Positions 17,592 to 48,322 of a DNA stretch of 64,000 bases are shown here, one piece after another; position 1 is the first letter of the stretch; each line of letters opens with the position of its first letter. A program made the position numbers and the translations under genes. Location of the stretch: positions 19,068-83,067 of IMG/VR virus record IMGVR_UViG_3300031788_000005, one strand, 5' to 3'. The DNA comes from a virus. The notes under the pieces are model-generated. The model was given only the letters and a program-made list of their open reading frames with translations, did no database searches and was not told where the DNA came from.

Positions 17592-17911
17592 ATTATCTTC
17601 CTAAATAACTGGCTCCTTCCTTAAATCCTTCAAAGAAAATATCTTGTCCTTCCCTACTAAGACCTTTGGGGAAATAAGTTATTTTATGTTGAACGTAACA
17701 ACCACCCAAACCGCCATCTTGATGTATTTGCTCAACAATACAAGGATACTTCACTGGATATTCTTTAAGTGCGGGACATGGCTCTTTATTAGGCGGACTT
17801 TTGTAATAGTAAAAATCTTTAAATTCTTTTGGTGTATTAATTATTTTCATTTAACTATCTTTAGTTTAAAATATTTTTCTCACAAAGTCAACAAAAATCT
17901 GTATAATATAT

Positions 17912-18008
17912 TGCGTAGTGATAATAAAACCAACCAACAGAATTTTGGCTTTTCGTGAGCGTTTTGGAAACGCACTTCGATTTATTTGAACTACGCAGCA
18001 CGAAAGGC
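17912..18008 (+). promoter_or_regulatory. pseudoknotted 5' UTR, copy 1
   Basis: TGCGTAGT/ACTACGCA crossed with GCTTTTCGTG/CACGAAAGGC, ending 4 nt before an ATG. Confidence 0.55.
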
Positions 18009-18012
18009 TTTT

Positions 18013-18147
18013 ATGACTAAAAAATGGACACCCAAAGAAATAGCTTATCTTAAAGAAAATTATTCAAAATTTAGAGCCAAAAAATGCGCTCAAGATTTAA
18101 AAAGAAGTTTAAATTCTGTTTATTGTCAAGCTAAATTATTGAATTAA
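18013..18147 (+). CDS. 44-aa HTH protein, likely a homing endonuclease N-terminal remnant (MTKKWTPKEIAYLKENY...)
   Basis: Translated by hand; WT..E..YL..NY..A..L.RS..SV pattern. Confidence 0.5.
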   Translation: MTKKWTPKEIAYLKENYSKFRAKKCAQDLKRSLNSVYCQAKLLN

Positions 18148-19490
18148 TTAGTTCTGCTCCTAGTGTGAAATTCCACTGAAGATTCAGGAACTTCGTTAAC
18201 AACACCACTAAAAGAAATTAGAAAAGACTTATTGTGTAATAGACAGCACCATAAATATCCCTCAGTATTTTTTGGGATATGAATGTCTCCAACCGTCACG
18301 TCTTTTTTGAGAAAAACCCTCATTCTAGAATCCCATTTTCCAAATCCTCTAAGATAGAGGTTGAGATTTTAGCCGCGTTAGTTTCACCACTTTCCACGTA
18401 ATTTCCTACAAATTCTTTGATTTTAAGAAGCCCTAATGTTTGAATTTCGGAGTCTTTGCCAGCGGTTCTTAGTTCGGTTAAGACATCCATAAACAGATTT
18501 TCAATATCGTCAGTACTCATATTATTCTTCTATCTTGCCACTATTCTCGGGAAATGTCAAGTAAAATTCCTTCTTAAGACTTTCGTACTTAGCAATAAAA
18601 TCAGTAAATTCCTTAATAACTTTTTTCCCTGCTTTTTTATCGCGAAGAATTATCAAGACCTTAGACAGTAGTAATGAGTTGTGGTTCAGGGACATAAGTT
18701 GATTCGACTTCTATAAAAAATTCTTGTGGTTTTTGTTGCAAATGAGAAAAGATATGTTCGTTGGGTATTACCCTTTGAGACTGGTAAATGCACCCGAATT
18801 TATTTCCATCTTTATGGGTTAACATAGTTTCAAAATGAAAGCCGTCTAGCTGTCTGGTTGTAAATGTGAAATCTGCTATGTCCATATTAATCTCCATTAA
18901 TCTTTGCAGCCAGTGGTTTCGGCATAAATCCCTCGCATCGGCCCTCTGGTGAAATTTTACAGATACTTGGAGTCATACATTTTAGTCTTATATTGAATTT
19001 ACAACCGACCGCCTGACAGTCTATATCTAGCCAATCGCGACTTAGCCACGGATGATGTTCCTTTCCGTGACCGACTCTAGGATTAGTCCGGCAGTTTTCA
19101 TTCGTCGTGTCCGTCATTCTCCAACAATTCTTCGTATTCGCACGTCTCAATCATATCCTGCAATAACTCTATAACATCCTTTTTATTAGAATCAAAATTA
19201 TCTTGTAAGTCGCCTGTGGAAAACAGGTGTGATATATTTTCGAGTTTTTCAATGATTTTTTCTAAGTTGTGGATAATTTTGTCGGGTTTCATAATTATTA
19301 ATTAATTCTGTTAAAATCTCGGCTGTATAACGTGGGATAAATTTTATTCATATTCAAATCATTAATAAATAATAGTTTATATTGGTTTTCTGATAAAGTC
19401 AAGTATTTTATTTTTAGTTAATGATTTAAATTTGTTCCAGTCGTTTTCCCACACAAAAACCTATAGATGTGAAATTAAAATACGAATGGA

Positions 19491-20033
19491 CTATTTCCCA
19501 CTTGACCCAAAACCACCCACTCGCGCTGTTTGAGACAAAAAGTCAACCAACTCAAATTTAATGGGGATTGTTGTTCTGGCTACTAATTGTCCAATACGGT
19601 CGTTTTTAGAATAAATTTTTTCATAATTTATTTTATAATAAATTCTTGTGATACCGGCTTCTGGCAAAACAAACAAATCCTCTGCGGCTGGTATGTAGCG
19701 AAAACGAAGTAATATTTCTTGCGTAAAATCAGCATCTATTAATCCAATTCCGTTAGCTAATATCAGATTCTTATTTGAAACACTGGAACGAGGAAGAATC
19801 TCAATATGTTCATTGGGACTTTCGGGAGAAATATAAATTCCAGTATGATATTGAATATAGTCAATTCGACGATATAACGTAAAATTATCCAATGGAAAAT
19901 TAACTATGTCGCCGACGATTATTGGTTCAGAAAGCGCGGTCACATCATAACCCGCGCTATGTTCAGTTGCTTGTTTTGGTGGTTCAATCTTGAAACTAGT
20001 CCTGTCGCATTTATTTTTTAGATATACCTTCAT
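19491..20033 (-). CDS. dut: trimeric dUTPase
   Basis: SAGYD, PRSS, GLIDAD, RIGQL, RVGGFGSSG. Confidence 0.92.
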   Translation of the reverse strand: MKVYLKNKCDRTSFKIEPPKQATEHSAGYDVTALSEPIIVGDIVNFPLDNFTLYRRIDYIQYHTGIYISPESPNEHIEILPRSSVSNKNLILANGIGLIDADFTQEILLRFRYIPAAEDLFVLPEAGITRIYYKINYEKIYSKNDRIGQLVARTTIPIKFELVDFLSQTARVGGFGSSGK

Positions 20034-21114
20034 ATTTTAATTAATCCAATCTCCAATGACTCGTCTGCTTCCTGCAAATTCGTCTAACTGCATATAAGCC
20101 CACGAACTACCCACCTTGTTTGTTGCTAGAAATTTTCCGTCTTTATAAGATACCGTATATTTGTCGGGATTATTTTTCGCAACATAGCACCACGCTTTAA
20201 AAGCCTTTTGGCGAACGGTTAATGAGGGACAATTTTTGTATGCGCGTTTGACTTTTTGAGCGAAATTCATATTATTTTGTCTTAATTGGTTCCCATTTTC
20301 CATTTTTAAAAACTTGCATATAAACATCAATGGTTTCTTTGTCAGCATAACCTTAATAAAGATACTCACTAACTTCATCTTTTACACCTAAGAACCCTTG
20401 TGTTTCATTTTTTAGTTCCTCGTCGGGAATTTCGAATGTGCGGGTTACTGTATAAATATGTTGAATTTTCATATTAATCGTGATTATACTCTTCTGTACT
20501 AACACCATTCGGTGTAACTGTTACTTTAACATGGTCTCCAAACATAGCCAACATCGTATTATCTTCTATGGCTCCAACGATGTCAGATGCTAGTTCAAAG
20601 GCATTTTTAGGAACTTCATCTTGTTTGTCATAATCATCATAATCATTAATTTTAACGTCATTATTAACTGAAAAACGACATTCATCACCATCATTAAAAT
20701 ATGGCGTATATTGATTCCACGAAATACTCTTGACCGAAGGAAAAAGTTCAAAAAACTCTTTCATTGATTCATTAAATAGTTTTTGGGATTCAGATTTAAT
20801 TTCCTCTTGTAGTGAGGAAACTCTTTCTTTTAGGTTTTCGAGTTTATCTTGTATGGATTTGTTCATAAAATTATAAAATAATAGCTAAATCATCTTTCTC
20901 CTCATTAGTTTCTGAGCATTCGACATTTGAAAGAATTTCCATGATTTTTTCAGTACAAGCCTTCTTAGGCAGAAGTTCTTCCTTATTTCGGTCAAAAACC
21001 ATTAGACTTTGGACGCTATTATCATATGTGCAATCATTGTATTCAGAATTAAATCTGACAATTGCATAAAATGCCGAATCAGGATAATTTTCTTTAACGA
21101 ATTGTTTAATTTCT

Positions 21115-21540
21115 TTAGTCATAACGTGTTTGGTTTATTAGGTTGGGTATTTCAATTGGTAATTTTGATTTTAATTTGTCTTCAATTTTCTGGAAACTGG
21201 GAGGGACACCACGTCCATTATTCATCCAGTCTTTCATTTCCATTTCTTGCAAATAATCTTGGGCGGTAGGAATAAATTTTCCTCGAAAATCTTCTGCTAC
21301 ATGCTGTTCACCAATATCACGAACAGATATTTTTTTATTTTCCGAATTAGTAATTGTAACTCCAAAAATTTTTTCAAGTATGAAACTCAAAAACCAAGAA
21401 TTATGAGTCAAAGCACGGTGACGATTGTCACAAATAGCTCCTTTTGAACTATCCATAAGATTATGAATTTCAATGTAGTCTTCAGGAACACCGCCAAAAC
21501 GTTTGGCGGAAGATACTGCATGTATGTATGGTTTACTCAT
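21115..21540 (-). CDS. DUF6915-like protein
   Basis: PYIHAVSSAKRFGG.PEDY..IH..MDSSK, HRALTHN, EQHVAED. Confidence 0.7.
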   Translation of the reverse strand: MSKPYIHAVSSAKRFGGVPEDYIEIHNLMDSSKGAICDNRHRALTHNSWFLSFILEKIFGVTITNSENKKISVRDIGEQHVAEDFRGKFIPTAQDYLQEMEMKDWMNNGRGVPPSFQKIEDKLKSKLPIEIPNLINQTRYD

Positions 21541-21541
21541 A

Positions 21542-22051
21542 TTAAACTTCACATTCCTTTTCTGAAATCATACACTTAATACCCAATTCCTTATCAAACC
21601 ACCTAGCCGCAACCCCTGCTTCATTAAACATAATCATACTGCGGTCATCATGACCATTCCACTTTTCACCCTTAATTTTATCCCACAAGTTTTCCCATTG
21701 TTTGTGTAAAACAATTTCTGTAATTCCGGCTTGAATAATTGCACGAGCGCAGTCCGTACATGGAGTAGAGTTGGTATACATTATAGAACCAAAAGTCTTA
21801 ATTCCATTACGGGCAGCGTTGTATACTGCATTGCGTTCGCCGTGCTCAAACCAATAATATTTTTCAGGTCGTTTATTTCTTTCTGTAGCTTTATCGTTAA
21901 CTTTACGACAGATTCCATTGTAACCCTCTGAAACTACACCACCGTCTTGAACAAGAATAGCTCCTATTTGGGTAGAAATATCTTTGCTTTTGGAGCCAAT
22001 TAAATAGACGTGCCTCATAAAAAGCTCGTCCCAAGATGGAATAGGTATCAT
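21542..22051 (-). CDS. dCMP deaminase
   Basis: SKD.STQIGA, GYNG, HGERNA, PCTDCARAIIQAGI. Confidence 0.92.
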   Translation of the reverse strand: MIPIPSWDELFMRHVYLIGSKSKDISTQIGAILVQDGGVVSEGYNGICRKVNDKATERNKRPEKYYWFEHGERNAVYNAARNGIKTFGSIMYTNSTPCTDCARAIIQAGITEIVLHKQWENLWDKIKGEKWNGHDDRSMIMFNEAGVAARWFDKELGIKCMISEKECEV

Positions 22052-22447
22052 ATTAAAAGAAAAAGAAGCAATATAGGATTTATTATTTTACATTCCCTAA
22101 AAGTAGGGGACTTTGCCATCCATGATTGCTTCAATATTGATTACACGCAATAAGATTCAACTAGATATTTATTTACCTTATGCTTGTCAATCTTTTTGAG
22201 TTCGGAGTCTTTAACAAAACCGAACAAAGTATGATGCAAACTAACAAGTCTGGCACCCTTATCGTCCTTCTTTAAGGCTCGAACTACTTGGTTTTTCCAA
22301 GAATAGAGTCGGCCAGCCACTATCTTATTAGGCGAAGCAAACTTCCCATCATTTGCGCGATTTACTTTACGCGTGAATTGGCCAGCCGAGTTTCGAATGT
22401 TATAGAATTTATTCATAGTATTATTGTGGATTATATTTCTTAAATTG

Positions 22448-22828
22448 TCAAGGATTATTGGTCGATTTTTCTTTAATTTTTTCTTTTACGTATTCAGCGG
22501 CATTAATATTAAAATAAGTTGCCGAAGCATGGTCTTCGTCTACATCGCCCGAAAACCATTGTAGAAAATGTCTAAGCGCGGATTCGCGGAAACGTTCAAG
22601 TTCTTCTTCTCCATTCGCCAGCATCCAATTGCGCTTTTTATATTTCTTAGCCCCTAAAGTAAGATGTTTGGCAAATCTTTTGAACATCGGGCCATCAAGA
22701 GCCAGAGAATAATCGATTTTGTCGGTAGTTACGTCTCTAACCATGCCGCTTTTATATTCAGTTCTTACGCCTGAATCTTTAATAGTGAATTCGGTTTTAG
22801 AGGATTGGATTGGGGGGTTTGATTGCAT
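22448..22828 (-). CDS. dATP/dGTP diphosphohydrolase domain protein (DUF5664-like)
   Basis: DSG.R..Y.SG.VRD, GAKKY..RNW, SALRH, EDHA. Confidence 0.8.
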   Translation of the reverse strand: MQSNPPIQSSKTEFTIKDSGVRTEYKSGMVRDVTTDKIDYSLALDGPMFKRFAKHLTLGAKKYKKRNWMLANGEEELERFRESALRHFLQWFSGDVDEDHASATYFNINAAEYVKEKIKEKSTNNP

Positions 22829-22922
22829 ATTAAATTAATACTTCTGCTTTTTCTAATTAAATAGATAGTTTTTGGATATTTGGTATTGATGTATTTACGG
22901 CCAACTTTTATTTGGGAGGGTT

Positions 22923-23315
22923 TCATAGTTCTGGATTGCCTTCTATAACACCCGTATTTGGAATAACATGATAAGCACGGTCATCAACAAAATGAGTAAA
23001 ATAATACATCTTCAAACAAGTAATCTGCAATGTTTCCGGCAACCCGTTCTCTTTGAGAAAATTTTGGATTTTTTGAATTTCTACTTCTGATGTAGTTTGT
23101 GAATGAGAAAGTCGCGCTGTAAAAATAGAAACTTTATAACCCTTTTTAAGCCACTCTTTGACTTTACTAACCATATATTTAACAGGTTTACCTACCTTAT
23201 TACCCTGAGCTTCCCAACTATCGTAATGAGCAATTACTCCATCAAAATCAAGTGCTATATACACTTCCTTATGAGCCTTCTCTGGGTCTGGGATTTCTAT
23301 TTCTATTTTTGCCAT
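22923..23315 (-). CDS. HAD-family phosphatase (polynucleotide 3'-phosphatase-like)
   Basis: DFDGVI, FTAR, K...FVDDRA. Confidence 0.8.
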   Translation of the reverse strand: MAKIEIEIPDPEKAHKEVYIALDFDGVIAHYDSWEAQGNKVGKPVKYMVSKVKEWLKKGYKVSIFTARLSHSQTTSEVEIQKIQNFLKENGLPETLQITCLKMYYFTHFVDDRAYHVIPNTGVIEGNPEL

Positions 23316-23692
23316 AAAAGTATATTAATCTATCTTTCCGTCTTTGTCAACAACAATCATCCTACGATAATCTGATAATTGCAATTAGGACAGGTTATAT
23401 AAGTATAAGTATCGGTATCACCAGTGTAGTCCGTGTGTATTTTTGTGAAAGTATCCACGGGCATGTATTCAAGCAGTGCGCCACAATTACGACAAGTACA
23501 CTGTTTGACTAATTTTTTGTCTGGTTCTTTGTTTATAATTTTAATAGGCATAAATTTATAATGAGTTACGGAAGGGCTTCCATCTTCAGGTAGTTATCGG
23601 CCATGTATGCATCCATGCGCTGTTATTGCTTTTATTATTATAATCTTAAATCTAGATTACTGTGCAGTTGTGTTTCTGCCAATCGCTCGAAA

Positions 23693-23861
23693 TGGTGGAG
23701 CAGGAGAGTCAACACGCTTTTGGACTTACGCGCCTACATTTGGCGCAACCTTGGCTAAAAGTCGTTGCCTTTTGTGTCTGCTGTCGTCTTGCGGTGTCCC
23801 GCTATCGTAGTAACAGACTTCTCCGATTAACTTGCTTCTCCCCGCTTTAAACGGGATGCTC
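23693..23861 (-). ncRNA. 169-nt CCA-ending tRNA-mimic-like RNA
   Basis: GGAGCA...TGCTCC-ACCA acceptor-like stem enclosing several hairpins. Confidence 0.55.
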
Positions 23862-24237
23862 CGAAAATTTTCAATCTACGGAAGTGTTTTACTTCCCATA
23901 GACACCCCAACAACGCCACTAACAGAAATAATGGCAAAAATAATACAATCAAAAAAGTTGCTAACAATATTATTGGTATTTTTTTTTATATTTTCTTTTG
24001 ATTTGATTTGTTGTTTAAAATTATTTGGGGAAAAATTAACTAATGTTATACAGATAATCATTAAAATGAGAATAACTAAACATACGACACAATATAACGG
24101 CCAGCCTAATGACATTATTATTAATGATAAAATCGCAAGTGGAGACCGTTGTCTATCTGCTTTATCTAATATGCTTTGAAGCCAAATAAAGAAGGTACAA
24201 AATAAAAAACATCCAGCAAAGTAAAGGTATAAAAATA

Positions 24238-29686: not shown

Positions 29687-30457
29687 TCATAGGTCTGAGA
29701 ATTTTTTAATTGTTAGTTTGTTATCTTTAATTAATAAATATTGGTTAAGATGGCAGTCGATATCTATATTTTGCCAAATATTTTCATCAAACGAACCCTC
29801 GGTACTGTGGGGTAAAATATTAGTATGGGAACTATGCCCAACTACCTGCGGAAGTCCTTCAATCGGTTCAAATTCCGTATCAAAATCCAACCAGTCCAAT
29901 CCACCCACTGATTGACTACCTCCTCTACCATATCCAGCGCGGTACATCCAATGTCTTCCATTAGCAGAAAGAGATATTTCGGCCTGTTCTACCTGTTCAT
30001 CCAACCATTTAGAAAGACTTATTTTATCTAATTTTTGGTTTGGAGGAAGGAATGAGGGGTGAAGACCCGCGTGGGATAATAGCCGGTCGTCCAAAAACAA
30101 ATACCACAAAAACTTTTCCCTGATTGCTGGCATAAAAGACCCAAATTCTTTGGTAATTAACTTGTCCTTCCACCTATAATAACCACTACATTGAGTGTGC
30201 TGAGTATAACCCCACAAGTAACTTATATCGTGATTGCCGATTGTGGTAAAGAAGTTTGGCTCAAACAAATACTTTTTGAGAAATTTACACGTTTTGATGG
30301 CGTCTTCTTCGCTATTATGACTAAAACTATCGAAAAAATCGCCGAGACAAACTACTTTATCGTAATTTTCACGCTTGAGAATTGTCTCTAGTTTATTAAT
30401 CTCCTGATGCGGGTCGCTCAGGACAAGAATCGTCTGGTTTTTACTTGAAAGTTCCAT
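29687..30457 (-). CDS. calcineurin-like metallophosphoesterase
   Basis: SDPH, GDFFD, GNHD, SHAG, VGHS. Confidence 0.9.
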   Translation of the reverse strand: MELSSKNQTILVLSDPHQEINKLETILKRENYDKVVCLGDFFDSFSHNSEEDAIKTCKFLKKYLFEPNFFTTIGNHDISYLWGYTQHTQCSGYYRWKDKLITKEFGSFMPAIREKFLWYLFLDDRLLSHAGLHPSFLPPNQKLDKISLSKWLDEQVEQAEISLSANGRHWMYRAGYGRGGSQSVGGLDWLDFDTEFEPIEGLPQVVGHSSHTNILPHSTEGSFDENIWQNIDIDCHLNQYLLIKDNKLTIKKFSDL

Positions 30458-41161: not shown

Positions 41162-41165
41162 AAAA

Positions 41166-41259
41166 TGGCGGATAAGTAAAGTGCCGACCTCTATCCGTGG
41201 TATTAGCACGAATCACCTGCTTTCAAAGCAGAGGCCATCGCCGGATGGCTAACCTATCC
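41166..41259 (-). tRNA. tRNA-Ser(TGA)
   Basis: TCTGC-TTTGAAA-GCAGG, long variable arm, GCCA. Confidence 0.85.
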
Positions 41260-41791
41260 AAATTATAAAAAATTTATTTTATCTAAATTTATTTTTGGAT
41301 TAATAATAGTTTCCCCAATTTCCGTAGTCGCTAGAAATTTCCTAACTTCTTGGATTTTACTTTTATTACCCTCCCCATATTCAATCAACGCCTGCATGGT
41401 TTGATGTTCACAAATAAATTTTACATCGGAGGGAATATATTTTTCCCATAGTTTTTTAAATTGTTTATATTTCATAATATTCTAATTCAGCTATTCTTCT
41501 GGCCGCTTTTTTATCTACTCGCAAACAACGCCTTCTATGGGTTGTGTCTTTAGATTTTCGCCTTCCAGATATGCCTTTTAAAAAAGATTTACTGCTATAC
41601 GGTTTCATAATATTATTGGGTAAATTTTAGATTTGTCTTTCTGCAACTCCTTCCACATCAAAACCTGCTGACAAGCATGAATTCCATCGCGGAAATAACG
41701 TTGGTGGTCGGGATGGGTTTGTGGCAAAAGGATAAATTTATCCCACGCTTCGACAAGACATTGCATTATTTCTTTTTCCTCATTCATAAAT

Positions 41792-41864
41792 TGGTGAATC
41801 CTTGATGGCTCACACACCACAAGCGGTTTGCCGCAGTCGTCTTTCTCATTGCAGACGAGGACTC
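41792..41864 (-). ncRNA. tRNA-like RNA with a 4-nt loop in place of an anticodon loop
   Basis: GAGTCCT/AGGATTC-ACCA; D-like and T-like arms; GCGG-CAAA-CCGC. Confidence 0.55.
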
Positions 41865-41870
41865 GTAAAT

Positions 41871-41957
41871 TGGCGGATAATTACCCTCCTGCCGAGTAAA
41901 CCTTTCGGTTCGCACCGTTTTCGAAACGGGCCTAGAAACTTTTCTAGTTAATTATCC
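41871..41957 (-). tRNA. tRNA-Ser(CGA)
   Basis: CCGT-TTCGAAA-ACGG, long variable arm, GCCA. Confidence 0.85.
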
Positions 41958-42403
41958 AAATCATTGGTCTCCATCCATTAAAGTTTGTAACGTCAAAGCT
42001 GCTAGATTTGCTTTGGTAGGCCGTTCAATACCGCAGATGGGACACATTTTCCAAGATTTTGGAATATCCCTGTGTAATGAGTCCATCCACCAAGAATAGC
42101 GCCTATTTCCATCAATATATTCATGGAGATATTTAATATGGTCACACCAAGTTTTCATAAAGCCGCTTGCCAGAATGTATCGACTGCCCCAATCATAGTC
42201 CCTGATAAAACCCAAAAATCACCTTCTGCTCGTGGATATGGATTAGGGATAATCTCTACTTCATGTTCTCCCGCTGACAATGGCACTATGATATCTCGCG
42301 GTAGACGCATTTTAGATGCATCAATTAAATTTAATATTCTAGTCGTAATTACTTTCATTAATTTAAGCTTAACAAATTTTTCATTCAAAGTCAAGAAAAA
42401 AAA

Positions 42404-42478
42404 TGGAGGCTAATCAGGGATTTGTTTCGCCCTGTCTTGTAATTTACGAAATTACTGTGCATACAACACCTAAAAGCC
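42404..42478 (-). tRNA. tRNA-Thr(CGT), atypical
   Basis: GTAAT-TTCGTAA-ATTAC; imperfect acceptor; enlarged T-loop. Confidence 0.6.
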
Positions 42479-42483
42479 GAAAG

Positions 42484-42558
42484 TGGAGGACAAGCCGGAA
42501 TTTACATCCGATTCCCAATTTTACCAAAATTGAATTTTATTACATAAACTACAAGTCC
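42484..42558 (-). tRNA. tRNA-Thr(GGT)
   Basis: CAATT-TTGGTAA-AATTG; mismatched acceptor; CCA. Confidence 0.7.
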
Positions 42559-42572
42559 AAAAAATCATAAAT

Positions 42573-42651
42573 TGGTGCTGCGGACAGGAGTTGAACCTGC
42601 ATTATTCCAATTATGCGCTTCCTCTTTAGGAAAGAGTGCCATTACCGCAGC
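42573..42651 (-). tRNA. D-armless tRNA-Arg(CCT)
   Basis: GCTGCGG/CCGCAGC-ACCA, CTCT-TTCCTAA-AGAG, GCAGG-TTCAACT-CCTGT. Confidence 0.65.
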
Positions 42652-42659
42652 GTAAAATC

Positions 42660-42767
42660 GTGCTGACTGTCTGTTGAGTTGGCAATCCCAATTAACGACC
42701 CGACAGCTAGGTGGCTCACTAAACGTGGTGTTCGGTAGCGAATCGAACGCGCCTTTGATATCAGCAC
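42660..42767 (-). ncRNA. permuted tRNA-like (YrlA-like) RNA, weaker copy
   Basis: GTGCTGA/TCAGCAC closing stem; GTTCGATT T-loop precedes an AATTGG D-loop-like segment. Confidence 0.45.
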
Positions 42768-42770
42768 AAA

Positions 42771-42920
42771 TTATTCGTCGTCCCAACCTTGAGGGACTTT
42801 CTTGCCCGTTTCCTTTTCAAACTGGCGGTGCATTTCGTAACGCACATCACCATCGGCAGGGCCAAAATCAGCGTTGATACGAAACCATTTAAGGTATTCA
42901 AGTTCTGTTGCTTCTTCCAT
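42771..42920 (-). CDS. 49-aa protein MEEATELEYLKWFRINADFGPAD... (paralog of 37139-37318)
   Basis: Translated by hand; TTGACA-17-TAATGT-6-ATG promoter. Confidence 0.75.
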   Translation of the reverse strand: MEEATELEYLKWFRINADFGPADGDVRYEMHRQFEKETGKKVPQGWDDE

Positions 42921-42961
42921 ACTCAAACATTATCATCAATGTCGGATTATGTCAAGCGAAA

Positions 42962-43052
42962 TGGAGGAAGGAGCAAATCCCGCCTTTGACACCCCTTTCA
43001 GGGTGCGATGTGTTTAGCAAACACTCCTAGAACCTCGTCTAGTTCACCTTCC
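42962..43052 (-). tRNA. tRNA-Ser(GCT)
   Basis: GTGT-TTGCTAA-ACAC, long variable arm. Confidence 0.8.
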
Positions 43053-43446
43053 ATTGTTCAAAGTTTTCTGCTAATTTTACATCTGGATGTCTTTTTGAAG
43101 CAGAAAAACTAAGATAAATTTTACTTTTACCGCGAGCCAAATGCAACGGAACAAAATAGACCTTATCATTTGCTGGATAATAAATGGCAAAATAATCTAT
43201 TTTGCCTTCGTAATCTTTGCTTACTTGCTGTCCCTTAATTTTGTAAGTAGATTTTCCATCAAATTCGATGCTGTTATTTACTTTTCGTCCTGTTTTTGTT
43301 TGGATGCGAATTAAATTATTATCGTCTTGAACGATTAAATCTACACCCGTATTTTCTCCAAATGGGAGAAATGCCGTTTTCCCTAATTCCAAAACTTTAG
43401 CTAAAACTTTGGCTTCAGAAATACTTCCTTTGCTTTTTGTGTTCAT
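43039..43446 (-). CDS. PD-(D/E)XK endonuclease (PDDEXK_5-like)
   Basis: KG.ISE, PFGEN..VDLI, RIQTKT, IDYFAIY. Confidence 0.8.
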   Translation of the reverse strand: MNTKSKGSISEAKVLAKVLELGKTAFLPFGENTGVDLIVQDDNNLIRIQTKTGRKVNNSIEFDGKSTYKIKGQQVSKDYEGKIDYFAIYYPANDKVYFVPLHLARGKSKIYLSFSASKRHPDVKLAENFEQWKVN

Positions 43447-43486
43447 GTCTATCTAGTAATACACTAGACACGTTTCATTGGGAAAT

Positions 43487-43571
43487 TGGTCGCAATGGTG
43501 GGACTTCCACCCACAAAGGTCGGAGATTTTAAGTTTCCATGCTCTTGTATTCGCTGTCAACCCACATTGCG
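43487..43571 (-). tRNA. tRNA-Leu(TAA), short variable loop and enlarged D region
   Basis: CGCAATG/CATTGCG-ACCA; loop CTTAAAA. Confidence 0.65.
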
Positions 43572-43659
43572 TTGAAATTGGTGTGTTCTTTCCCACCGTC
43601 AGCAGCCAAGGGAGCGGCTTTACCAGCCATCCTCGGTATCGTTTTGTGCGAACGTATAT

Positions 43660-43737
43660 TGGTGCGCCCCCTCGGTAATGCTCCGAGTCCTATCGGGTAA
43701 GAGCCGATTGCTTGCCACTATTAGAGCTTGGAACGCA
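43660..43737 (-). tRNA. tRNA-Lys(CTT)
   Basis: ATCGG-CTCTTAC-CCGAT. Confidence 0.85.
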
Positions 43738-43742
43738 GTAAA

Positions 43743-43818
43743 TGGTTGTCGTGACAGGTGCCGACCCTGCTAAATTCTCCATGTAAAGGAGATAATCATG
43801 CCGATGATACTCACGACA
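43743..43818 (-). tRNA. tRNA-Val(TAC)
   Basis: TCTCC-TTTACAT-GGAGA. Confidence 0.8.
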
Positions 43819-43824
43819 GTAAAA

Positions 43825-43899
43825 TGGATGCCTGTGATGGTGCTGCCCCATCGCCTCGACTTTCAGAGAGTCGCGAACTACTGTTATTCAGAACAGGCA
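43825..43899 (-). tRNA. tRNA-Gln(CTG)
   Basis: CGACT-CTCTGAA-AGTCG; U1-A72. Confidence 0.85.
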
Positions 43900-44366
43900 A
43901 TAAAATTACTTTTCTTGTAATGATTCAGAATGACCGCATTGTGGACATTTCCAACATCTAACAAGTTTTCCTTCTGAATAATGAGTGTATTCTGTTTTAA
44001 TATTTTCATCAACAAAATCAACAGACTCACCCAATTTTAAATTAATTTTGCAGTATTTACATTTTTTATTTTTCATAAATTTAAAATCTCAACAAAAAGG
44101 TTAATTCTTCGCTGAGAATCCAAGGTATATTACTACCCTTGAAAACCCCTATGGTGCACTTTAACCATTCCCCTTGCAAAAAGAACAAGCGTTAAGGGTA
44201 CTAAATCTCTCTAATCCACTCCGTAACTGGAATAAATTTTTCACATTTACAATTAGGACATTTTTTAAAAACCTCGTCTAAATTAAAAATCTCAGAACAT
44301 CCTATGCATTTTTTGAAATTTTGCAATCTTGGTTTAATTTTGTAATAATCTTTGATTTTCATAAAA

Positions 44367-44441
44367 TGGAGCCAAGCCTCGGTAATGCTCCGAGTTCTCT
44401 CGATTACAAGTCGAGTGCATCACTTTGTATGCTTGCAAGGC
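44367..44441 (-). tRNA. tRNA-Thr(TGT)
   Basis: CTCGA-CTTGTAA-TCGAG. Confidence 0.85.
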
Positions 44442-44446
44442 GAAAT

Positions 44447-44522
44447 TGGTGCATCCTGTCGGAACTGCCCCGACATCCCATTCCTTAAGAGGGAAGGCTC
44501 TATCTCGCTGAGTTAAGGATGC
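44447..44522 (-). tRNA. tRNA-Lys(CTT), second copy with an Arg-like body
   Basis: TTCC-CTCTTAA-GGAA; GCATCC acceptor; GATAGAG D-loop. Confidence 0.75.
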
Positions 44523-44791
44523 AAAATTATTAATATATTATTTAATTTCTAAATTATCTAGAACTTCTATTAGTTTAACATCCAAAATTTGGGCATCATC
44601 TTCTGTTAGAGAGCGGTCATAAATCAAACCTTTCGTAGGAGAACCGTATCTCCAATCTTTCCAGTATTTTTTACCATCTCTATCTTGCCAAATTGTTGTT
44701 CCACCGTCACGAATTGTATTAATTTTCTTAACCAAAATTTCTTGCATATTTTTATTATGAATGAAGTTTAGATTTTTGTCAAGGAGAAAAA

Positions 44792-44866
44792 TGGTCCCAG
44801 TAGAAGAAATTGCATCTTTAACTCCGAATGACTTATGAAATCACCGTTCCACTCTGGATTACTGGG
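44792..44866 (-). tRNA. atypical tRNA(CAT), Met/Ile2
   Basis: CCCAGTA/TACTGGG-ACCA; GGTGAT-TTCATAA-GTCATT; very small D arm. Confidence 0.55.
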
Positions 44867-44871
44867 AAAAA

Positions 44872-44947
44872 TGGTGGACATTTCGTGTTACGCTCACGAC
44901 TTTCAACTTTTTCAGAGTTGCACTTTCACTAGATTAGTTTAATGTCC
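44872..44947 (-). tRNA. tRNA-Phe(GAA)
   Basis: CAACT-CTGAAAA-AGTTG. Confidence 0.85.
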
Positions 44948-45340
44948 TTAAATTTTTAATTTATTTTCTATTTGGTCAAGATGTTTTCCCATAAATACTA
45001 GGATTTTATGAGATTGCTCTCTTGCAGCTTTCCATTTTAGTAAATCTTTTGGCTGAACATAACCCTTAGTTTCTACTCTTAAAATTTTATTGGAATTAGT
45101 TAAAATATCAAAATCTACTAAATAAGAATGTTTTTTGTTATCTTCACCAATATAAGGAATTCTTAATTTGGATTTACTCCAATCTAATATCATTCCTTTT
45201 TCTTTTAGTTTATCAAAAATAATACAAGCTCGATACTCATAAGACCCCTGTACTCGAATATTATTATATGTAAGCCATTTCGTTGTTCCACCAGAAACTT
45301 CTAAATTACCAGAAGAAAACATCTTTTTATTGGTAGCCAT
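44948..45340 (-). CDS. TnsA-like PD-(D/E)XK endonuclease (probably 5'-truncated)
   Basis: QGSYE, YLVDF, VETKG; ATG lies inside the tRNA-Arg acceptor stem. Confidence 0.7.
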   Translation of the reverse strand: MATNKKMFSSGNLEVSGGTTKWLTYNNIRVQGSYEYRACIIFDKLKEKGMILDWSKSKLRIPYIGEDNKKHSYLVDFDILTNSNKILRVETKGYVQPKDLLKWKAAREQSHKILVFMGKHLDQIENKLKI

Positions 45341-45406
45341 ACTCGGAATCCCACCGAGAACTAAGGATTAGAAGTCCCCTATGATATGTATTTTCACCAT
45401 ACGGCC
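45331..45406 (-). tRNA. tRNA-Arg(TCT)
   Basis: GGGGA-CTTCTAA-TCCTT. Confidence 0.85.
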
Positions 45407-45498
45407 AGAAATTATGATGGCATCCCATTTAGGAACACCACCAAACCCAAAGGCTCTATTGCAGAGTCAAATGCAAGGAAGAGTTACTGCGGAAGATA

Positions 45499-45588
45499 TG
45501 GTCGGTCTGCGGCGTAACGCTCGCCGTCTAGCTTATTAGGCAGTACCTGCGCCCAAGGCAGGTGGGTTCACTTTTTCCCTACAGACCG
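45499..45588 (-). tRNA. tRNA-Pro(TGG) with long variable region
   Basis: CGGTCTG/CAGACCG-ACCA; CCTGC-CTTGGGC-GCAGG. Confidence 0.8.
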
Positions 45589-46528
45589 ATAAATTTGTTT
45601 TTCTAAAAATCAATTGATTTGAACCCAGAAAATCGGCCACAGATTTAGCTGCTGTTAGTTCGTCATTAAATCTTTTTGAAAATTGTATTTTTCCTTGTTT
45701 TTTAACATTAGCAATCCATTTATTCCTAGACGAACTAAACGAAACATAAAGATATTTAGATGGAAAAACACGACTTATAGGTGTGATTTTTTTAATCCTG
45801 TTTCGTCTTGAAAATCTGGAAATATTTTTCCAATCTATGTTATAATAGACGCACCATTTACGTAGGGTATTATCACTTATATTATATTGTTTAGCAATAG
45901 TTAAAATGGGATGTATCTTAATTAGAGCAATCAAATCCTCTTTGGATGGTCTTCTCTGCTTTCTTCGGTTTTCATTAGAGCAAATAGCACATATATCATT
46001 GTTAGAGTATCCTTTTGATGGTTTCCCACACTCCTTACAAAAATAATATTTTTTATGTTTTTTCCCTGCAAATGTTGATGTCTGACTATGACAATTTGGA
46101 CAAAGAAATTCAAGATTTTCAATTCTATCATCGTCAGAAACTCCATTTTTATGTTCTAATTGTAAGGAAAGTTTCAAATTATTCCATTGTCCTTCATTTG
46201 AGCACTTTGAGCATTTATAAGGCAATAAATTAAATTTAATTAAATATTTTTTAGTACTTACGCGTTTGTGTGGAGAATGTTCCACTAATCTAGTTAAAAA
46301 CTCGTCCTTTGAAACTTCTTTAGTTAATATCGAAGAATGAAGTCTGTTTAGAAAATGGGAAGAGTCTATATTTAGTTCCTTAATTCTATTTTTACAGGTT
46401 ACATAGTTTCCACCTTTATTTTCCATCCCAAAAAACTTTAACACTTGGGACATTGTTTGGCTTGTAAGAATTAGTTTCTTAAAATCTGGTTCTGGATATG
46501 ACCATATGATACTTGTTCTTTTTCGCAT
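45536..46528 (-). CDS. HNH homing endonuclease with HTH and AP2-like C-terminal domains
   Basis: C..C...W....L.LQLEHKNG...D.R.ENL.FLCPNCHSQT; start MRKRT after GTGTAAT. Confidence 0.88.
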   Translation of the reverse strand: MRKRTSIIWSYPEPDFKKLILTSQTMSQVLKFFGMENKGGNYVTCKNRIKELNIDSSHFLNRLHSSILTKEVSKDEFLTRLVEHSPHKRVSTKKYLIKFNLLPYKCSKCSNEGQWNNLKLSLQLEHKNGVSDDDRIENLEFLCPNCHSQTSTFAGKKHKKYYFCKECGKPSKGYSNNDICAICSNENRRKQRRPSKEDLIALIKIHPILTIAKQYNISDNTLRKWCVYYNIDWKNISRFSRRNRIKKITPISRVFPSKYLYVSFSSSRNKWIANVKKQGKIQFSKRFNDELTAAKSVADFLGSNQLIFRKTNLSVCREKVNPPALGAGTA

Positions 46529-46584
46529 ATAGTATATTATACACGAATAATGGTGAACTATGAAGTAGGGGTTCGATATAAATT

Positions 46585-46668
46585 TGGCAGCCCCGATTCG
46601 ATTTGCACGAATGATGTTTATATTTCGGTTCCAAAGACCGACGCGTTCGACTACTCCGCCACGGGGCA
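46585..46668 (-). tRNA. tRNA-Gln(TTG) with long variable region
   Basis: TCGGT-CTTTGGA-ACCGA; G73. Confidence 0.8.
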
Positions 46669-46954
46669 ATAAAATTTCGGGAGCAACGTGTTACTAAACT
46701 AATCTAGTAGACATGACCCCCATCACCATAAAGGTGAGAAGTAAATTAATCTTGTGGAAACAAAAATTTCGCAAGAGAATCGTTATGCTCGTTGACGATT
46801 GTGTTAGCGTGGTCTGGCCACATTGCTTTTCCGAGAGTTACTTCATCTGGAAATCCAAGACATTTAACAACGTCCGCAACATCGTAATCAGTACCGCGTT
46901 TAACGATTCGAACGCCCCATTTGTTATGACGGAAATATTGGTCGTTGGTCATCT

Positions 46955-47458
46955 TTATTTTTTAATAGGAAATTCCAAACAAACCTCTCCTCTATCAGAA
47001 TAGTATGCTCCATCTGTAATTGACGCCTTAGATTTGTAAGCTTTTTTCTTGGAACGGTCATTCAAAAACTCAGCCAAGCATTTTTCATTATGTAAATGAT
47101 ATTGTTTATCTATCCCATCTGGACCTTTTAGGGTAGCAGCAATGGAATCTTCCTTGTCGTCTTTATCTTTGGTGTCGATTGGACGTTTACAGTTGTCACA
47201 AATTGTTTGGATTTTTGCCTCAGCAGTATAAGAAGCGACTGCACTTTTTTGAGTTTCCATTTTCTTGTTGATAAACGACGCCATACAAGCCATATCACAA
47301 AATTCATGTTGTTTTTTATAAGTGGCACCATTTGCTTCTGGCTCGCTAAGAAGAGCAACAGATATGTTTTTATGACCTTCTGGATAATGTTGGCCGAGTT
47401 CAGCGCCGCATTGGTCACACGCAACTACTTGTCTCGCGAAAGATTCTAAATTATTCAT
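46955..47458 (-). CDS. tandem Zn-finger (TRASH/YHS-like) protein
   Basis: CDQC...HEFCDMAC and CDNC...HLHNEKC; start MNNLES after GTGTAAT. Confidence 0.55.
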   Translation of the reverse strand: MNNLESFARQVVACDQCGAELGQHYPEGHKNISVALLSEPEANGATYKKQHEFCDMACMASFINKKMETQKSAVASYTAEAKIQTICDNCKRPIDTKDKDDKEDSIAATLKGPDGIDKQYHLHNEKCLAEFLNDRSKKKAYKSKASITDGAYYSDRGEVCLEFPIKK

Positions 47459-47536
47459 ACAACAAGTATTACACGCAAAAATACCCAAATAAAAAGAAAA
47501 AATCATACATTATTACCATTTTTGTGCATAATATAT

Positions 47537-47634
47537 TGAATTGAAAATGATACCGACTAACCGTTTTAGCCGTCCTTATGTGCTCCTAAGAAGAGTGTCT
47601 CTGTTTATCAGTTTCAATTCACCATAAGGGCGGT
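47537..47634 (+). promoter_or_regulatory. pseudoknotted 5' UTR, copy 2
   Basis: TGAATTGAAA/TTTCAATTCA crossed with GCCGTCCTTATG/CATAAGGGCGGT, ending 4 nt before the ATG. Confidence 0.55.
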
Positions 47635-47638
47635 AATT

Positions 47639-48322
47639 ATGATTTTTAACGACCTGCCAAAAACCTTCGGAATATATAAATTTACCAACAAAATAAATGG
47701 TCGCATCTATATTGGTAAGTCTAATAATCTTCGGTATAGAATAAAACACCATTTAAGAAAAAGTGCTAATCAAGTAATAGATAGAGCTATAAAAAAATAT
47801 GGATTAGATAATTTTGATATTGAAATTATTGATACATTTGAAAATATTGACAATACGGAACTTCTAGCTTTAGAGACTTCGTATATTGAATATTTTGAAT
47901 CTTTGGTTGGTCAAAATGGATATAACATTTGCCTGTTTGGTTTGAATAATACAGGGTGTAAAGTTTCAAATGAAACTAAATATAAAATAAGCATCGCACA
48001 TTTTGGAAAAAAACTTTCTCAAGAACATCGTCGTAAAATTAGTTTAAGTAGTTTGGGTAGAAAGGCTTCGGAAGAAACAAAAATCAAAATATCCATATCC
48101 CGTTTAGGAGATAAAAATCCTAATAAAAAATGGAAAGCCTATGGAAATCCGACTTTTAACAAAAACATATATCATTTCCAAAACCGAATAACTAATGAAA
48201 CTTTTACCGGCTATCAATATGATTTTTATACAAAATACAATCTACGCTCAACAAATGTAAATAGAATTATAAGTGGTAAAGACAAATCATTTAAAAATTG
48301 GATATTTTTAGGCCGTCTTTAA
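47639..48322 (+). CDS. GIY-YIG homing endonuclease with NUMOD3 repeats
   Basis: GIYKFTNKINGRIYIGKS, AIKKYG, GYN, S.ETK.KIS repeats. Confidence 0.92.
   Translation: MIFNDLPKTFGIYKFTNKINGRIYIGKSNNLRYRIKHHLRKSANQVIDRAIKKYGLDNFDIEIIDTFENIDNTELLALETSYIEYFESLVGQNGYNICLFGLNNTGCKVSNETKYKISIAHFGKKLSQEHRRKISLSSLGRKASEETKIKISISRLGDKNPNKKWKAYGNPTFNKNIYHFQNRITNETFTGYQYDFYTKYNLRSTNVNRIISGKDKSFKNWIFLGRL

Follow-up and report, generated by a model that had tools for sequence, protein, structure and literature searches.

Two copies of a proposed promoter-plus-leader module with predicted interleaved helices over the ribosome-binding site of backwards-inserted genes in an uncultured peat phage

The translation of homing endonuclease genes in T-even phages is limited by sequestration of the ribosome-binding site, and the sequestering structures of I-TevI, I-TevII, I-TevIII, segB and Aeh1 mobE are simple local hairpins (PMC2988022). 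Control by a leader peptide together with a pseudoknot is described, as cited in PMC8053102, for repZ/repA of the IncI1 (ColIb-P9) and IncB (pMU720) plasmids. E. coli mRNAs of the 5′-uAUG class, which are Shine-Dalgarno-led and carry a start codon near the 5′ end, can load 70S ribosomes at that codon and influence the downstream gene (PMC4965119). In leaderless initiation a CA-rich sequence after the start codon helps, and structure and distance from the 5′ end hinder (PMC9031893).

The window analyzed here, 64,000 nucleotides of the 83-kb contig of an uncultured peat phage, holds two leader elements on the + strand, copy 1 at 17900-18015 and copy 2 at 47525-47641. The two are the whole set found in the contig, and each stands upstream of one gene inserted backwards. 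Open reading frames are strongly biased in strand, 149 on the − strand versus 19 on the + strand; both leader-bearing genes are + strand genes among − strand genes, and both leaders are situated between two − strand genes. The copy 1 gene and the convergent − strand gene 18144-18323 overlap at their stop codons, and the copy 2 gene shares 15 nt at its 3′ end with the convergent − strand gene 48308-48850. The original prediction placed a full GIY-YIG gene behind one copy and a 44-aa helix-turn-helix ORF behind the other. Both identifications were confirmed, the former encoding a GIY-YIG protein with NUMOD3 and the latter one Myb/GcrA-type module (Table 1). The proteins downstream of the two leaders are unrelated, an endonuclease versus a lone helix-turn-helix module, and the homology between the copies stops exactly at the start codon. 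In other proteins the copy 1 module is found in 3–9 tandem copies, some with a LAGLIDADG_3 domain; the single-module ORF may be a dead remnant.

Both copies begin with a promoter motif that is identical at 13 of 14 positions and, within the 83-kb contig, unique to these two sites. ATAATATATT is found at 17903-17912 and at 47528-47537, its longer form TGYATAATATATTG has two occurrences in the whole contig, which are these two sites, and the distance from motif to ATG is 113 nt in copy 1 and 114 nt in copy 2. The ATAATATATT box is the phage's own −35-less promoter type, (G/C)TG-TAnAAT, as at its other genes. Elsewhere in the genome this type sits 5–9 nt before a leaderless ATG, whereas at the two sites it launches a leader of ~100 nt and a gene with a Shine-Dalgarno sequence. 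Outside these sites the genome is largely leaderless, and the internal operon genes of the phage carry GGAGG-type Shine-Dalgarno sequences. The start-site rule, taken from 48 leaderless promoters, is TAnnnT followed by 6 nt (28 cases) or 7 nt (10 cases) and then ATG; transcription is predicted to start at ~17913-17915 in copy 1 and ~47538-47540 in copy 2. Scans for + strand promoters identified none between strands B and B′, the sole promoter-like box being upstream of A and B. Contigs from RNA libraries of peat samples do not extend over the leader. The −35-less promoter type, the largely leaderless genome and a short ORF present in both leaders are points that the original prediction did not contain.

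Table 1. Features of the two leader copies and of the genes behind them, in window coordinates.
Copy	Feature	Position	Strand	Sequence or description
1	Promoter box	17900-17913	+	TGTATAATATATTG
1	Promoter elements	17902-17907; 17879-17884		-10 TATAAT; weak -35 CTCACA
1	Strand A	17912-17928	+	core TGCGTAGT 17912-17919, 3-nt internal loop, extension AATAAA 17923-17928
1	Short upstream ORF	17918-17989	+	GTG to TGA, 23 codons, (M)IIKPTNRILAFRERFGNALRFI
1	Conserved A/C-rich stretch	17929-17938	+	ACCAACCAAC
1	Strand B	17947-17957	+	GGCTTTTCGTG, anti-Shine-Dalgarno strand
1	Small hairpin	17959-17973	+	GCGTTT-TGG-AAACGC
1	Strand A′	17981-17997	+	extension TTTATT 17981-17986, core ACTACGCA 17990-17997
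1	Strand B′	17999-18009	+	CACGAAAGGCT, includes Shine-Dalgarno AAAGG 18003-18007
1	Gene	18013-18147	+	44 aa, single Myb/GcrA-type helix-turn-helix module
2	Promoter box	47525-47538	+	TGCATAATATATTG, TG directly before (TGTGCATAAT)
2	Strand A	47537-47552	+	core TGAATTGAAA 47537-47546, one mismatch, extension TGATA 47548-47552
2	Short upstream ORF	47547-47627	+	ATG to TAA, 26 codons, MIPTNRFSRPYVLLRRVSLFISFNSP
2	Conserved A/C-rich stretch	47552-47561	+	ACCGACTAAC
2	Strand B	47569-47580	+	GCCGTCCTTATG
2	Small hairpin	47592-47602	+	AGAG-TGT-CTCT (weak)
2	Strand A′	47606-47621	+	extension TATCA 47606-47610, core TTTCAATTCA 47612-47621
2	Strand B′	47623-47634	+	CATAAGGGCGGT, includes Shine-Dalgarno AAGGG 47626-47630
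2	Gene	47639-48322	+	GIY-YIG + NUMOD3 homing-endonuclease-type protein, 227 aa

The layout is the same in both copies: promoter, A, an A/C-rich stretch, B, a small hairpin, A′, 1 nt, B′, about 4 nt and ATG. The coordinates and this order of elements had been predicted, and re-inspection of the sequence, the shuffles and the covariation bear them out. In copy 1, A pairs with 17981-17997 (−15.7 kcal/mol) and B pairs with 17999-18009 (−16.3 kcal/mol, 2 G-U pairs); the corresponding partners in copy 2 are 47606-47621 for A (−15.0 kcal/mol) and 47623-47634 for B (−20.4 kcal/mol, 2 G-U pairs). The spacer between A′ and B′ is a single unpaired nucleotide, G 17998 in copy 1 and C 47622 in copy 2. The Shine-Dalgarno sequence in B′ lies 5 nt (copy 1, AAAGG) or 8 nt (copy 2, AAGGG) before ATG, and its unpaired probability is 0.0 in both copies in a nested thermodynamic model (partition function). 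B and B′ are 41–42 nt apart with A′ of the other helix between them, so that the strands of the two helices alternate as A, B, A′, B′. With 11–12 bp, B:B′ is longer than a loop-loop kiss, and no self-complementary loop was seen in the leaders. In copy 2, the A:A′ fold places B in a 16-nt hairpin loop closed by 6 bp (47564-47569 with 47586-47591), inside the A:A′ stem; in copy 1 it spans a hairpin 3′ strand and the junction, and is mostly a junction strand.

The stem sequences were said to be unrelated between the copies with the pairing intact, and the alignment agrees. When the helices are aligned at the junction (shared CA-N-CA), 8 of the 19 positions are identical and 11 are changed on both sides, with none changed on one side and none unpaired; this covariation is one pairwise comparison, because there are only two copies and no homologue was found in other genomes. 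Shuffles with promoter and ATG fixed were scored for A at the promoter end, A′ 0–2 nt before B′, B′ ending 2–6 nt before ATG, and minimum stem lengths of 8/9 and 10 bp. The layout arose in 21 of 200,000 for copy 1 (~1e-4) and 5 of 200,000 for copy 2 (~2.5e-5). Crossing helices as such are common enough when G-U is allowed, with ~30 mostly G-U-rich sites in 128 kb; the improbable part is the helix placement and the co-occurrence with the unique shared motif. Folding z-scores of the whole leader are weak (−1.3 to −1.8). Identity between the copies outside the promoter box is modest and its local alignment is not significant, the position-restricted identity being 16/22 (p ~0.002).

The original prediction also held that the element travels with endonuclease cassettes, and this part is not supported beyond the present genome. 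No homologue of the leader was found by pattern scans in IMG/VR or JGI metagenomes, by blastn in cultured phages or in Rfam. Among the upstream regions of IMG/VR GIY-YIG homologues, a weak G-U-rich version is present in 3 of 27 distinct regions, and the shuffle rate of 5% predicts a similar number. The leader is absent from relatives of the 44-aa module, and the same phage's other endonuclease genes (16194, 45536-46528, 52220) have leaderless-type promoters and no leader. Against the Rfam covariance models, nothing in the window but tRNAs attained the gathering score. The leaders matched neither a Shine-Dalgarno-sequestering pseudoknot riboswitch nor any other family, their highest-ranking weak hits having E values of at least 0.1, far below threshold.

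A translation-limiting pseudoknot or two-state leader is the natural reading, because the interleaved helices covary and B′ lies over the Shine-Dalgarno sequence; to this extent the earlier interpretation stands, without the endonuclease travel and the cofactor RNA. Given the anatomy, covariation, energetics and promoter class described above, we propose, with a probability of about 0.6, that the two sites are paralogous copies of a portable promoter-plus-leader module which limits translation and whose helices form a long-range pseudoknot. The module would begin at the promoter −10 box, end with the start codon after 116 nt, and serve genes antisense to the main transcription. In B:B′ the internal CUUU/CCUU strand would pair with the Shine-Dalgarno strand and close the ribosome-binding site. 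A:A′, with a core of 8–10 bp and an extension of 5–6 bp, would tie the very start of the transcript to the segment that stops 1 nt short of B′. With the strands in the order A, B, A′, B′ and no other stable pairing among them, the helices can coexist only as a long-range pseudoknot, in which the 27–29-nt A′-N-B′ strand would be wholly covered and the mRNA 5′ end would be placed at the junction. Such a structure is sterically demanding; if the helices stack, the 16–18-nt loop 1 must span both. We infer that both helices form simultaneously and act on translation. The likely outcome would be default-off translation of the downstream gene, with the 5′ end probably shielded. A default-off leader would lead to low expression, as is typical for selfish endonucleases, and the role of the leader is most likely to keep the encoded proteins scarce.

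A possible elaboration, compatible with the masking module and put forward tentatively, is a gate opened by the predicted short ORF. In both copies this ORF starts inside strand A. Its stop in copy 1 abuts the A′ core, upstream of B′ by 10 nt and of the main ATG by 24 nt, and in copy 2 it lies in B′, overlaps the Shine-Dalgarno sequence and is 11 nt before the main ATG. Since the ORF runs from A across the A/C-rich stretch, B and the small hairpin to A′ or B′, its translation could open the gate. A ribosome loading before A′ is transcribed would hold A and B unpaired, and at the end of the ORF it would expose the main ribosome-binding site or re-initiate there; once it is gone, A:A′ would cover the short-ORF start and B:B′ the Shine-Dalgarno sequence, with roughly one endonuclease burst per transcript as the result. 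The short ORF has the same place and frame in both copies, and such ORFs arise by chance in 8% and 9% of the shuffles with ATG/GTG starts (jointly ~0.7%), but in 25% and 15% when TTG starts are allowed. The conserved linker encodes Pro-Thr-Asn-Arg in both copies, all 4 nucleotide differences in its 12 nt are synonymous (CCA/CCG, ACC/ACT, AGA/CGT), and the conserved TTTAT is in frame as Phe-Ile 15 codons later in both; the peptide middle, however, is not conserved, and there are two sequences only. The phage is built around leaderless initiation, which is enhanced by a CA-rich stretch behind the start codon and impeded by structure at the start (PMC9031893). It was also reported that 5′-terminal upstream ORFs on Shine-Dalgarno-led mRNAs of E. 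coli are translated and can affect the downstream gene (PMC4965119), and control by leader peptide and pseudoknot has a precedent in IncI1/IncB repZ, as cited in PMC8053102. Against the gate, the start codons are 3 nt (copy 1, GTG) and 7–8 nt (copy 2) from the predicted 5′ end and thus not strictly leaderless, the short ORFs have no Shine-Dalgarno sequence, and the stop positions differ between the copies. With the copy 1 stop 10 nt before B′, a ribosome that terminates there would free A′ but scarcely B′.

The 1-nt spacer between A′ and B′ would strain a coaxial pseudoknot, which favors a two-state switch, where A:A′ and B:B′ would be sterically exclusive and an external cue (protein, small RNA, antisense read-through RNA, RNase III, ligand or temperature) would choose the open ribosome-binding site. 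If the transcript contains all of A, the two nested folds have almost the same energy (−22.1 vs −23.0 and −24.6), and complementary RNA is expected because the cassettes are fully antisense to the flanking operons. We nevertheless consider the switch unlikely. If transcription starts at 17915 or 47539, the core of A is 2–3 pairs shorter and the nested A state is 6–7 kcal/mol worse than the B state, Rfam offers no match to a riboswitch or other family, and no conserved core resembling a ligand pocket is visible in the two copies. No stable A:B, A:B′ or B:A′ pairing was found in either leader; therefore it is not a 1:2/2:3/3:4 attenuator, and with no strand common to both helices the sequence forces no exclusivity. 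It is very improbable that the helices serve the − strand or the DNA, as a terminator or processing site for read-through transcripts or as a protein or recombination site. Each leader is indeed flanked by − strand genes, A:A′ is equally stable on that strand (−14.7 and −15.2 kcal/mol), and prediction places a terminator-like hairpin and T run at 47572-47554 (−), but copy 1 is without a matching − strand terminator. On the − strand the B:B′ energies are −10.5 and −14.6 kcal/mol, ~6 kcal/mol short of the −16.3 and −20.4 on the + strand, because all four G-U pairs turn into A-C, and the register of B′ on the Shine-Dalgarno sequence and the fixed ~4-nt spacing to ATG would be meaningless there. 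Nor is the element a protein-binding inverted repeat, as the stem sequences differ between the copies. Least probable of all is that the endonuclease uses the leader as a free RNA cofactor or guide, or that the similarity is functionless, a duplicated promoter with chance helices. The small hairpin and T-rich tail of copy 1 score as terminator-like, so release of a short RNA is possible in principle, but copy 2 has no such terminator. The idea of a cofactor RNA, raised in the original prediction, has no support; the downstream proteins are unrelated, the homology stops at the start codon and the structure is located on the ribosome-binding site. Chance similarity is excluded at the ~1e-4 and ~2.5e-5 per copy given above, plus the 11 two-sided changes.

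For the plasmid repZ/repA genes, Asano & Mizobuchi in 1998 and Praszkier & Pittard in 2002 reportedly described a leader peptide, a helix inhibiting the ribosome-binding site, a pseudoknot adjacent to the Shine-Dalgarno sequence and an antisense RNA. The peat phage leaders may resemble this type in a predicted short leader ORF whose stop lies close to the ribosome-binding site of the main gene (in B′ in copy 2, farther upstream in copy 1), and in a helix sequestering this site. A distal 5′ sequence would likewise pair right beside the Shine-Dalgarno strand in a pseudoknot topology, and complementary transcription is expected, by read-through of the flanking − strand operons. The repZ pseudoknot is reportedly short, a hairpin loop contributing a few G-C pairs, and turns translation on once the leader peptide has been made, whereas A:A′ here has 13–15 bp, involves the 5′ end of the transcript and may be activating or locking. 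There is no sequence relationship to the repZ-type plasmids. The comparison with the E. coli 5′-uAUG class differs in that translation of the short ORFs here is something we infer, from a start 3–8 nt from the predicted 5′ end. The E. coli examples are not known to have interleaved helices.

The T-even hairpins are similar in that the Shine-Dalgarno sequence of an endonuclease gene is tied up in a stable RNA structure and a phage promoter directly adjoins that structure. The T-even structure is a simple local hairpin, whereas the Shine-Dalgarno helix of the peat phage is long-range, enclosing 41–42 nt, and is interleaved with a helix of the 5′ end. The T-even late promoter is inside or after the 5′ arm and yields a shorter, translatable RNA; here the promoter is upstream of both 5′ strands, so that the whole leader is part of every transcript. 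T-even genes also ride on co-oriented early/middle polycistronic transcripts, whereas the genes here are antisense. With antisense genes and the leader complete in each transcript, the T4 trick of a late promoter within the hairpin is inapplicable. Masking of the ribosome site is known from phage T4; the interleaved-helix design is not.

The two leaders are a real, covarying two-helix structure of the + strand mRNA that buries the Shine-Dalgarno (SD) sequence of the downstream gene, and they occur twice in one phage, each behind a promoter of the phage's own type without a -35 box. Both sites are built alike: TG(T/C)ATAATATATTG leads into strand A, which an A/C-rich stretch separates from strand B; the small hairpin and A′ come next, then a single unpaired base, B′ and, after four more bases, the ATG of the main gene. 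The original prediction had described this arrangement, and its coordinates and order are confirmed here. The promoter 14-mer has only these two occurrences in the whole contig, 113 nt and 114 nt from the main ATG. Helix A:A′ (-15.7 and -15.0 kcal/mol) consists of a core of 8 bp in copy 1 and 10 bp in copy 2, with an extension of 6 and 5 bp over a small internal loop; B:B′ comprises 11 and 12 bp (-16.3 and -20.4 kcal/mol). The crossing-helix pattern alone, with G-U allowed, is common, with about 30 sites in 128 kb that are mostly G-U-rich and intragenic. When the leaders were shuffled with the promoter box and ATG fixed, copy 1 gave the layout in 21 of 200,000 shuffles and copy 2 in 5 of 200,000. 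The evidential weight lies in the placement of the helices, not in the crossing pattern by itself.

A conserved CA-N-CA junction adjoins both helices. The 19 helix positions aligned from this junction comprise 8 identical pairs and 11 two-sided changes, with no one-sided change and no mismatch, bearing out the claim that the pairing is kept in stems that differ. Outside the helices, the copies have in common the promoter box, a 22-nt stretch, TTTAT before A′ and TTATGA at the start; the 22-nt stretch shows 16 identities at the same offset, a level reached in 10 of 5000 shuffles. The plain local-alignment score of the two leaders is not significant, and their MAFFT alignment places B′ two columns out of register. 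The case for homology between the leaders comes from matching positions and lengths, the unique box and the common architecture, not from overall identity. It ends at the start codon, and the proteins encoded downstream are unrelated to each other.

B:B′ contains all four G-U pairs, as read in the + sense, and is about 6 kcal/mol weaker on the − strand. B′ contains AAAGG in copy 1 and AAGGG in copy 2, 5 and 8 nt before the main ATG, and GGAGG-type SD sequences are in use in internal operon genes of the phage. The two-helix structure is therefore part of the + strand mRNA. Separately, a scan predicts a terminator-like hairpin and T run on the − strand at 47554–47572, complementary to the A/C-rich stretch and the first bases of B in leader 2; leader 1 has no counterpart.

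The phage has two promoter types. Class I reads TTGAC(A/T)-N16-18-TAnnnT. In 48 instances it precedes an ORF of 45 codons or more, and its spacing to the ATG is 6 nt in 28 of them, 7 nt in 10 and 8 nt in 6. Because this spacing equals the canonical distance to +1, class I genes are predicted to be leaderless, and private promoters with leaderless mRNAs appear to be a genome-wide design. Class II has no -35 box and reads (G/C)TG-TA(T)AAT, followed by 5–9 nt and the ATG. Class II promoters cluster in the window's right half, on both strands, and may mark a different temporal class. The ATAATATATT box of the leaders is a variant of class II and not a special motif, with CTG-TATAAT in copy 1 and GTG-CATAAT in copy 2. 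After this box, the leaders carry about 100 nt of structured RNA and an SD where a leaderless ATG would be expected. From the phage's own promoter spacing rule we infer that transcription starts at about 17913–17915 and 47538–47540, which would make strand A the 5′ end of the RNA.

Table. Positions of the leaders, their ORFs and the promoters discussed in the text
Feature	Position	Strand	Copy	Basis
Leader 1	17900-18015	+	1	
Leader 2	47525-47641	+	2	
Single Myb/GcrA-type helix-turn-helix (HTH) module, 44 aa	18013-18147	+	1	
GIY-YIG + NUMOD3 gene, 227 aa	47639-48322	+	2	
Short ORF, 23 codons	GTG 17918 to TGA 17987-17989	+	1	conceptual translation
Short ORF, 26 codons	ATG 47547 to TAA 47625-47627	+	2	conceptual translation
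Class I, predicted leaderless, examples	162-524, 6549-6743, 14092-14301, 29687-30457	−		promoter-ATG spacing
Class II promoters	45536-46528, 48308-48850, 55362-55751, 57229-57897, 58460-59122, 61211-61456	−		sequence scan
Class II promoters, further positions	34984, 52220, 55774, 61517, 62363			sequence scan

In nested folding from the predicted starts, the B:B′ state is the minimum (-23.0 and -24.6 kcal/mol), the SD bases are unpaired with a probability of 0.0, and the best fold that contains A:A′ is 6–7 kcal/mol worse. With the whole of A transcribed, the A and B states come within 1–2.5 kcal/mol of each other. The MFE folds also contain a third, weak pairing (-6 kcal/mol) between A and the start-codon region. 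A classical 1:2/2:3/3:4 attenuator was rejected: cross pairings of A, A′, B and B′ reach -4.6 kcal/mol at best, and the helices do not compete for bases. In these models A:A′ and B:B′ could coexist only as a pseudoknot, in which the A′-N-B′ strand of 27–29 nt would be covered end to end by B and A, with the 5′ end of the transcript at the nick between the helices and a spacer of 1 nt between A′ and B′. Loop 1, of 16–18 nt, would have to span both helices, and loop 2, which is about 20–30 nt long and includes the small hairpin, would need to reach across helix A. Judged by these loop lengths, the pseudoknot seems feasible but strained. Within the A:A′ stem of copy 2, a 6-bp hairpin presents B in its 16-nt loop; B of copy 1 extends over a hairpin strand and a junction. 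Both helices may form together as a pseudoknot, or they may represent alternating states.

The original prediction was of a pseudoknot or two-state RNA that limits translation. Its structural part stands, with covarying helices and a buried SD, and its functional part is likely: we put the probability that the leader holds down translation of these antisense-inserted selfish or accessory genes at about 0.6. The same prediction gave the leader anatomy as found here and missed a short ORF present in both copies. This ORF starts inside strand A and stays open across the A/C-rich stretch, B and the small hairpin, stopping just before the A′ core in copy 1 and, in copy 2, inside B′ over the SD, 11 nt before the main ATG. 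The A/C-rich linker reads Pro-Thr-Asn-Arg in both copies, and all four nucleotide differences in its 12 nt are synonymous (CCA/CCG, ACC/ACT, AGA/CGT). The conserved TTTAT reads Phe-Ile in frame, 15 codons after the linker, in both copies. With ATG or GTG as start codon, 8% and 9% of shuffles contained such an ORF; admitting TTG raised these rates to 25% and 15%.

The short ORF brings up an elaboration of the translation-limiting leader, a self-closing gate for a phage of leaderless type, which we regard as rather unlikely. In this genome, organized around leaderless initiation, a ribosome would bind the 5′-terminal region before A′ is made or the RNA has finished folding. While translating, it would keep A and B single-stranded; on reaching or entering the SD strand it would hand over to the main start, opening the endonuclease ribosome-binding site (RBS) once, and the interleaved helices would then permanently close both start sites. 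Each transcript would supply roughly one burst of an enzyme that may damage the genome. Leaderless translation is reported to gain from CA-rich sequence behind the start codon and to suffer from structure and from distance to the 5′ end (PMC9031893). Upstream ORFs at the 5′ end of SD-led mRNAs are reported to be translated and to be able to influence the gene that follows (PMC4965119). Both reports are consistent with such coupling. However, the short-ORF starts lie 3 and 7–8 nt from the predicted 5′ end, one of the two is GTG, the stops are placed differently in the two copies, and the comparison comprises two sequences. If the coupling is true, the leader would work as a compact device for "one burst per transcript", with leaderless and SD-led initiation linked on one mRNA.

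The phage is known from an 83-kb IMG/VR record with an estimated completeness of 75% and a G+C content of 36%; the window covers bases 19068–83067 of it. It harbors rIIA- and rIIB-like genes, a tRNA array and several homing-endonuclease genes; it has no close relative among cultured phages, and the public runs containing it are peat metagenomes (22 peat DNA runs). ORFs of at least 60 aa number 168, with 149 on the − strand versus 19 on the + strand, and both leader-bearing genes are + strand inserts flanked by − strand genes. Elsewhere the HTH module occurs as 3–9 tandem copies in proteins of 200–800 aa (search of 1.8 billion representatives), with a LAGLIDADG_3 domain alongside in 2 of the 10 matches scanned against Pfam, and the 44-aa ORF has no paralogue in the contig. 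These relatives make it plausible that the 44-aa HTH is a remnant of a mobile gene, as had been proposed.

At 18144–18147 the 44-aa ORF and the neighboring − strand gene overlap convergently at their 3′ ends, both stops sharing TTAA; at 48308–48322 the GIY-YIG gene overlaps its − strand neighbor likewise, by 15 nt. Because both cassettes end in a convergent 3′ overlap, their transcripts must run antisense into the neighbor. A third antisense endonuclease, a GIY-YIG protein of 345 aa as called (16194–17231, +), has a catalytic domain that begins only at residue 65. It carries a class-II-like box, TATAATA-tgat-ATG, near 16230–16247 and no structured leader; given this box, translation may actually begin inside the called ORF, on a leaderless mRNA. 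Two genes of the same PHROG (phrog_10822), 45536–46528 (−) and 52220–52744 (+), encode HNH endonucleases; they lie in and beside the tRNA array on opposite strands, and both have leaderless-type class II promoters.

Other copies of the leader were sought widely. Rfam, at gathering and permissive thresholds, matched no family besides tRNAs, and blastn (distant mode) of both leaders and of a 2.5-kb flank against 50,697 phage records gave only chance matches of at most 40 nt. Consensus patterns built from positions common to both copies were scanned over IMG/VR and JGI metagenomes, and the matches were an unrelated coding family or chance. An initial resemblance in the contigs L068 and L074 proved to lie at the 3′ end of a − strand ORF and does not fold. 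The unrelated IMG/VR contig L087 (− strand, about position 2836) shares TATATTG(C/T)GTAGTGATA ... CCAAC(A/C)AAC with leader 1; the first block is identical at 16 of 17 nt, within chance, and as the contig has neither the promoter box nor the helices, it was judged a chance match. No syntenic relatives were found in IMG/VR through the flanking 183-aa protein and rIIB. Three metagenome protein fragments (P0001–P0003) are 86–100% identical to the GIY-YIG protein, P0002 lacking the N-terminus; the other GIY-YIG relatives, those with DNA examined, are at most 47% identical. A descriptor search upstream of phage endonucleases gave no enrichment: the relaxed architecture is no more frequent in 27 distinct regions upstream of GIY-YIG homologues than in shuffles, and the leader architecture is absent from two upstream regions of HTH-module relatives. 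The other endonuclease genes of the same phage have leaderless promoters. With no homologue in Rfam, cultured phages, IMG/VR, JGI metagenomes or the flanking-gene searches, the idea that the structure travels with endonuclease cassettes is unsupported beyond this genome, within which it is a portable module used twice, before unrelated ORFs.

Many IMG/VR homologues of the GIY-YIG gene (L010, L012, L015-L018, L020, L022, L023, L025-L027, L029-L032) carry a GCTAACGAGG/GGGG ... AATC(T/C)CGTG-type sequence about 60–130 nt upstream of the start. It resembles what we take to be group I intron core elements, and those homologues would presumably be intron-borne, not free-standing. Contigs of four peat runs over 46000–50000 show no variants and no cassette-free joints, that is, no empty site. 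Over the same interval, contigs of a peat RNA library (metatranscriptome run X23) match exactly 46202–46451 and 47174–47389, inside − strand genes; the leader is outside their cover, and they say nothing about its expression. Phage sequence is thus present in the RNA library, where DNA carry-over is possible.

A homing endonuclease has to be produced at the right time and in very small quantity. To our knowledge, the one solution worked out so far is the T-even hairpin with an internal late promoter, which depends on co-transcription with the neighbors. An antisense cassette may solve the low-dose problem by its own promoter and a leader that hides the RBS and the 5′ end in interleaved helices. 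The module, 116 nt long and ending exactly at the start codon, would offer a ready means of keeping toxic genes at low expression.

Sequestration of the RBS is established for the homing endonuclease genes of I-TevI, I-TevII, I-TevIII, segB and Aeh1 mobE (PMC2988022); our literature search found no pseudoknot leader described for homing endonucleases. The peat-phage leader resembles the T-even hairpins in sequestering the SD of an endonuclease gene. However, the T-even hairpins are local, while the leader is not a local hairpin; a promoter inside the T-even hairpin makes a translatable late RNA, whereas the leaders have no such promoter; and the T-even genes are co-oriented with polycistronic transcription, unlike the leader-bearing genes. 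The closest mechanistic analogue for long-range pairing next to an SD together with a leader ORF is repZ/repA control in the IncI1 and IncB plasmids (as cited in PMC8053102). These plasmids have a short, activating pseudoknot and a dedicated antisense RNA. What is known is the sequestering of the RBS of endonuclease genes, and what is new is a variant of that control.
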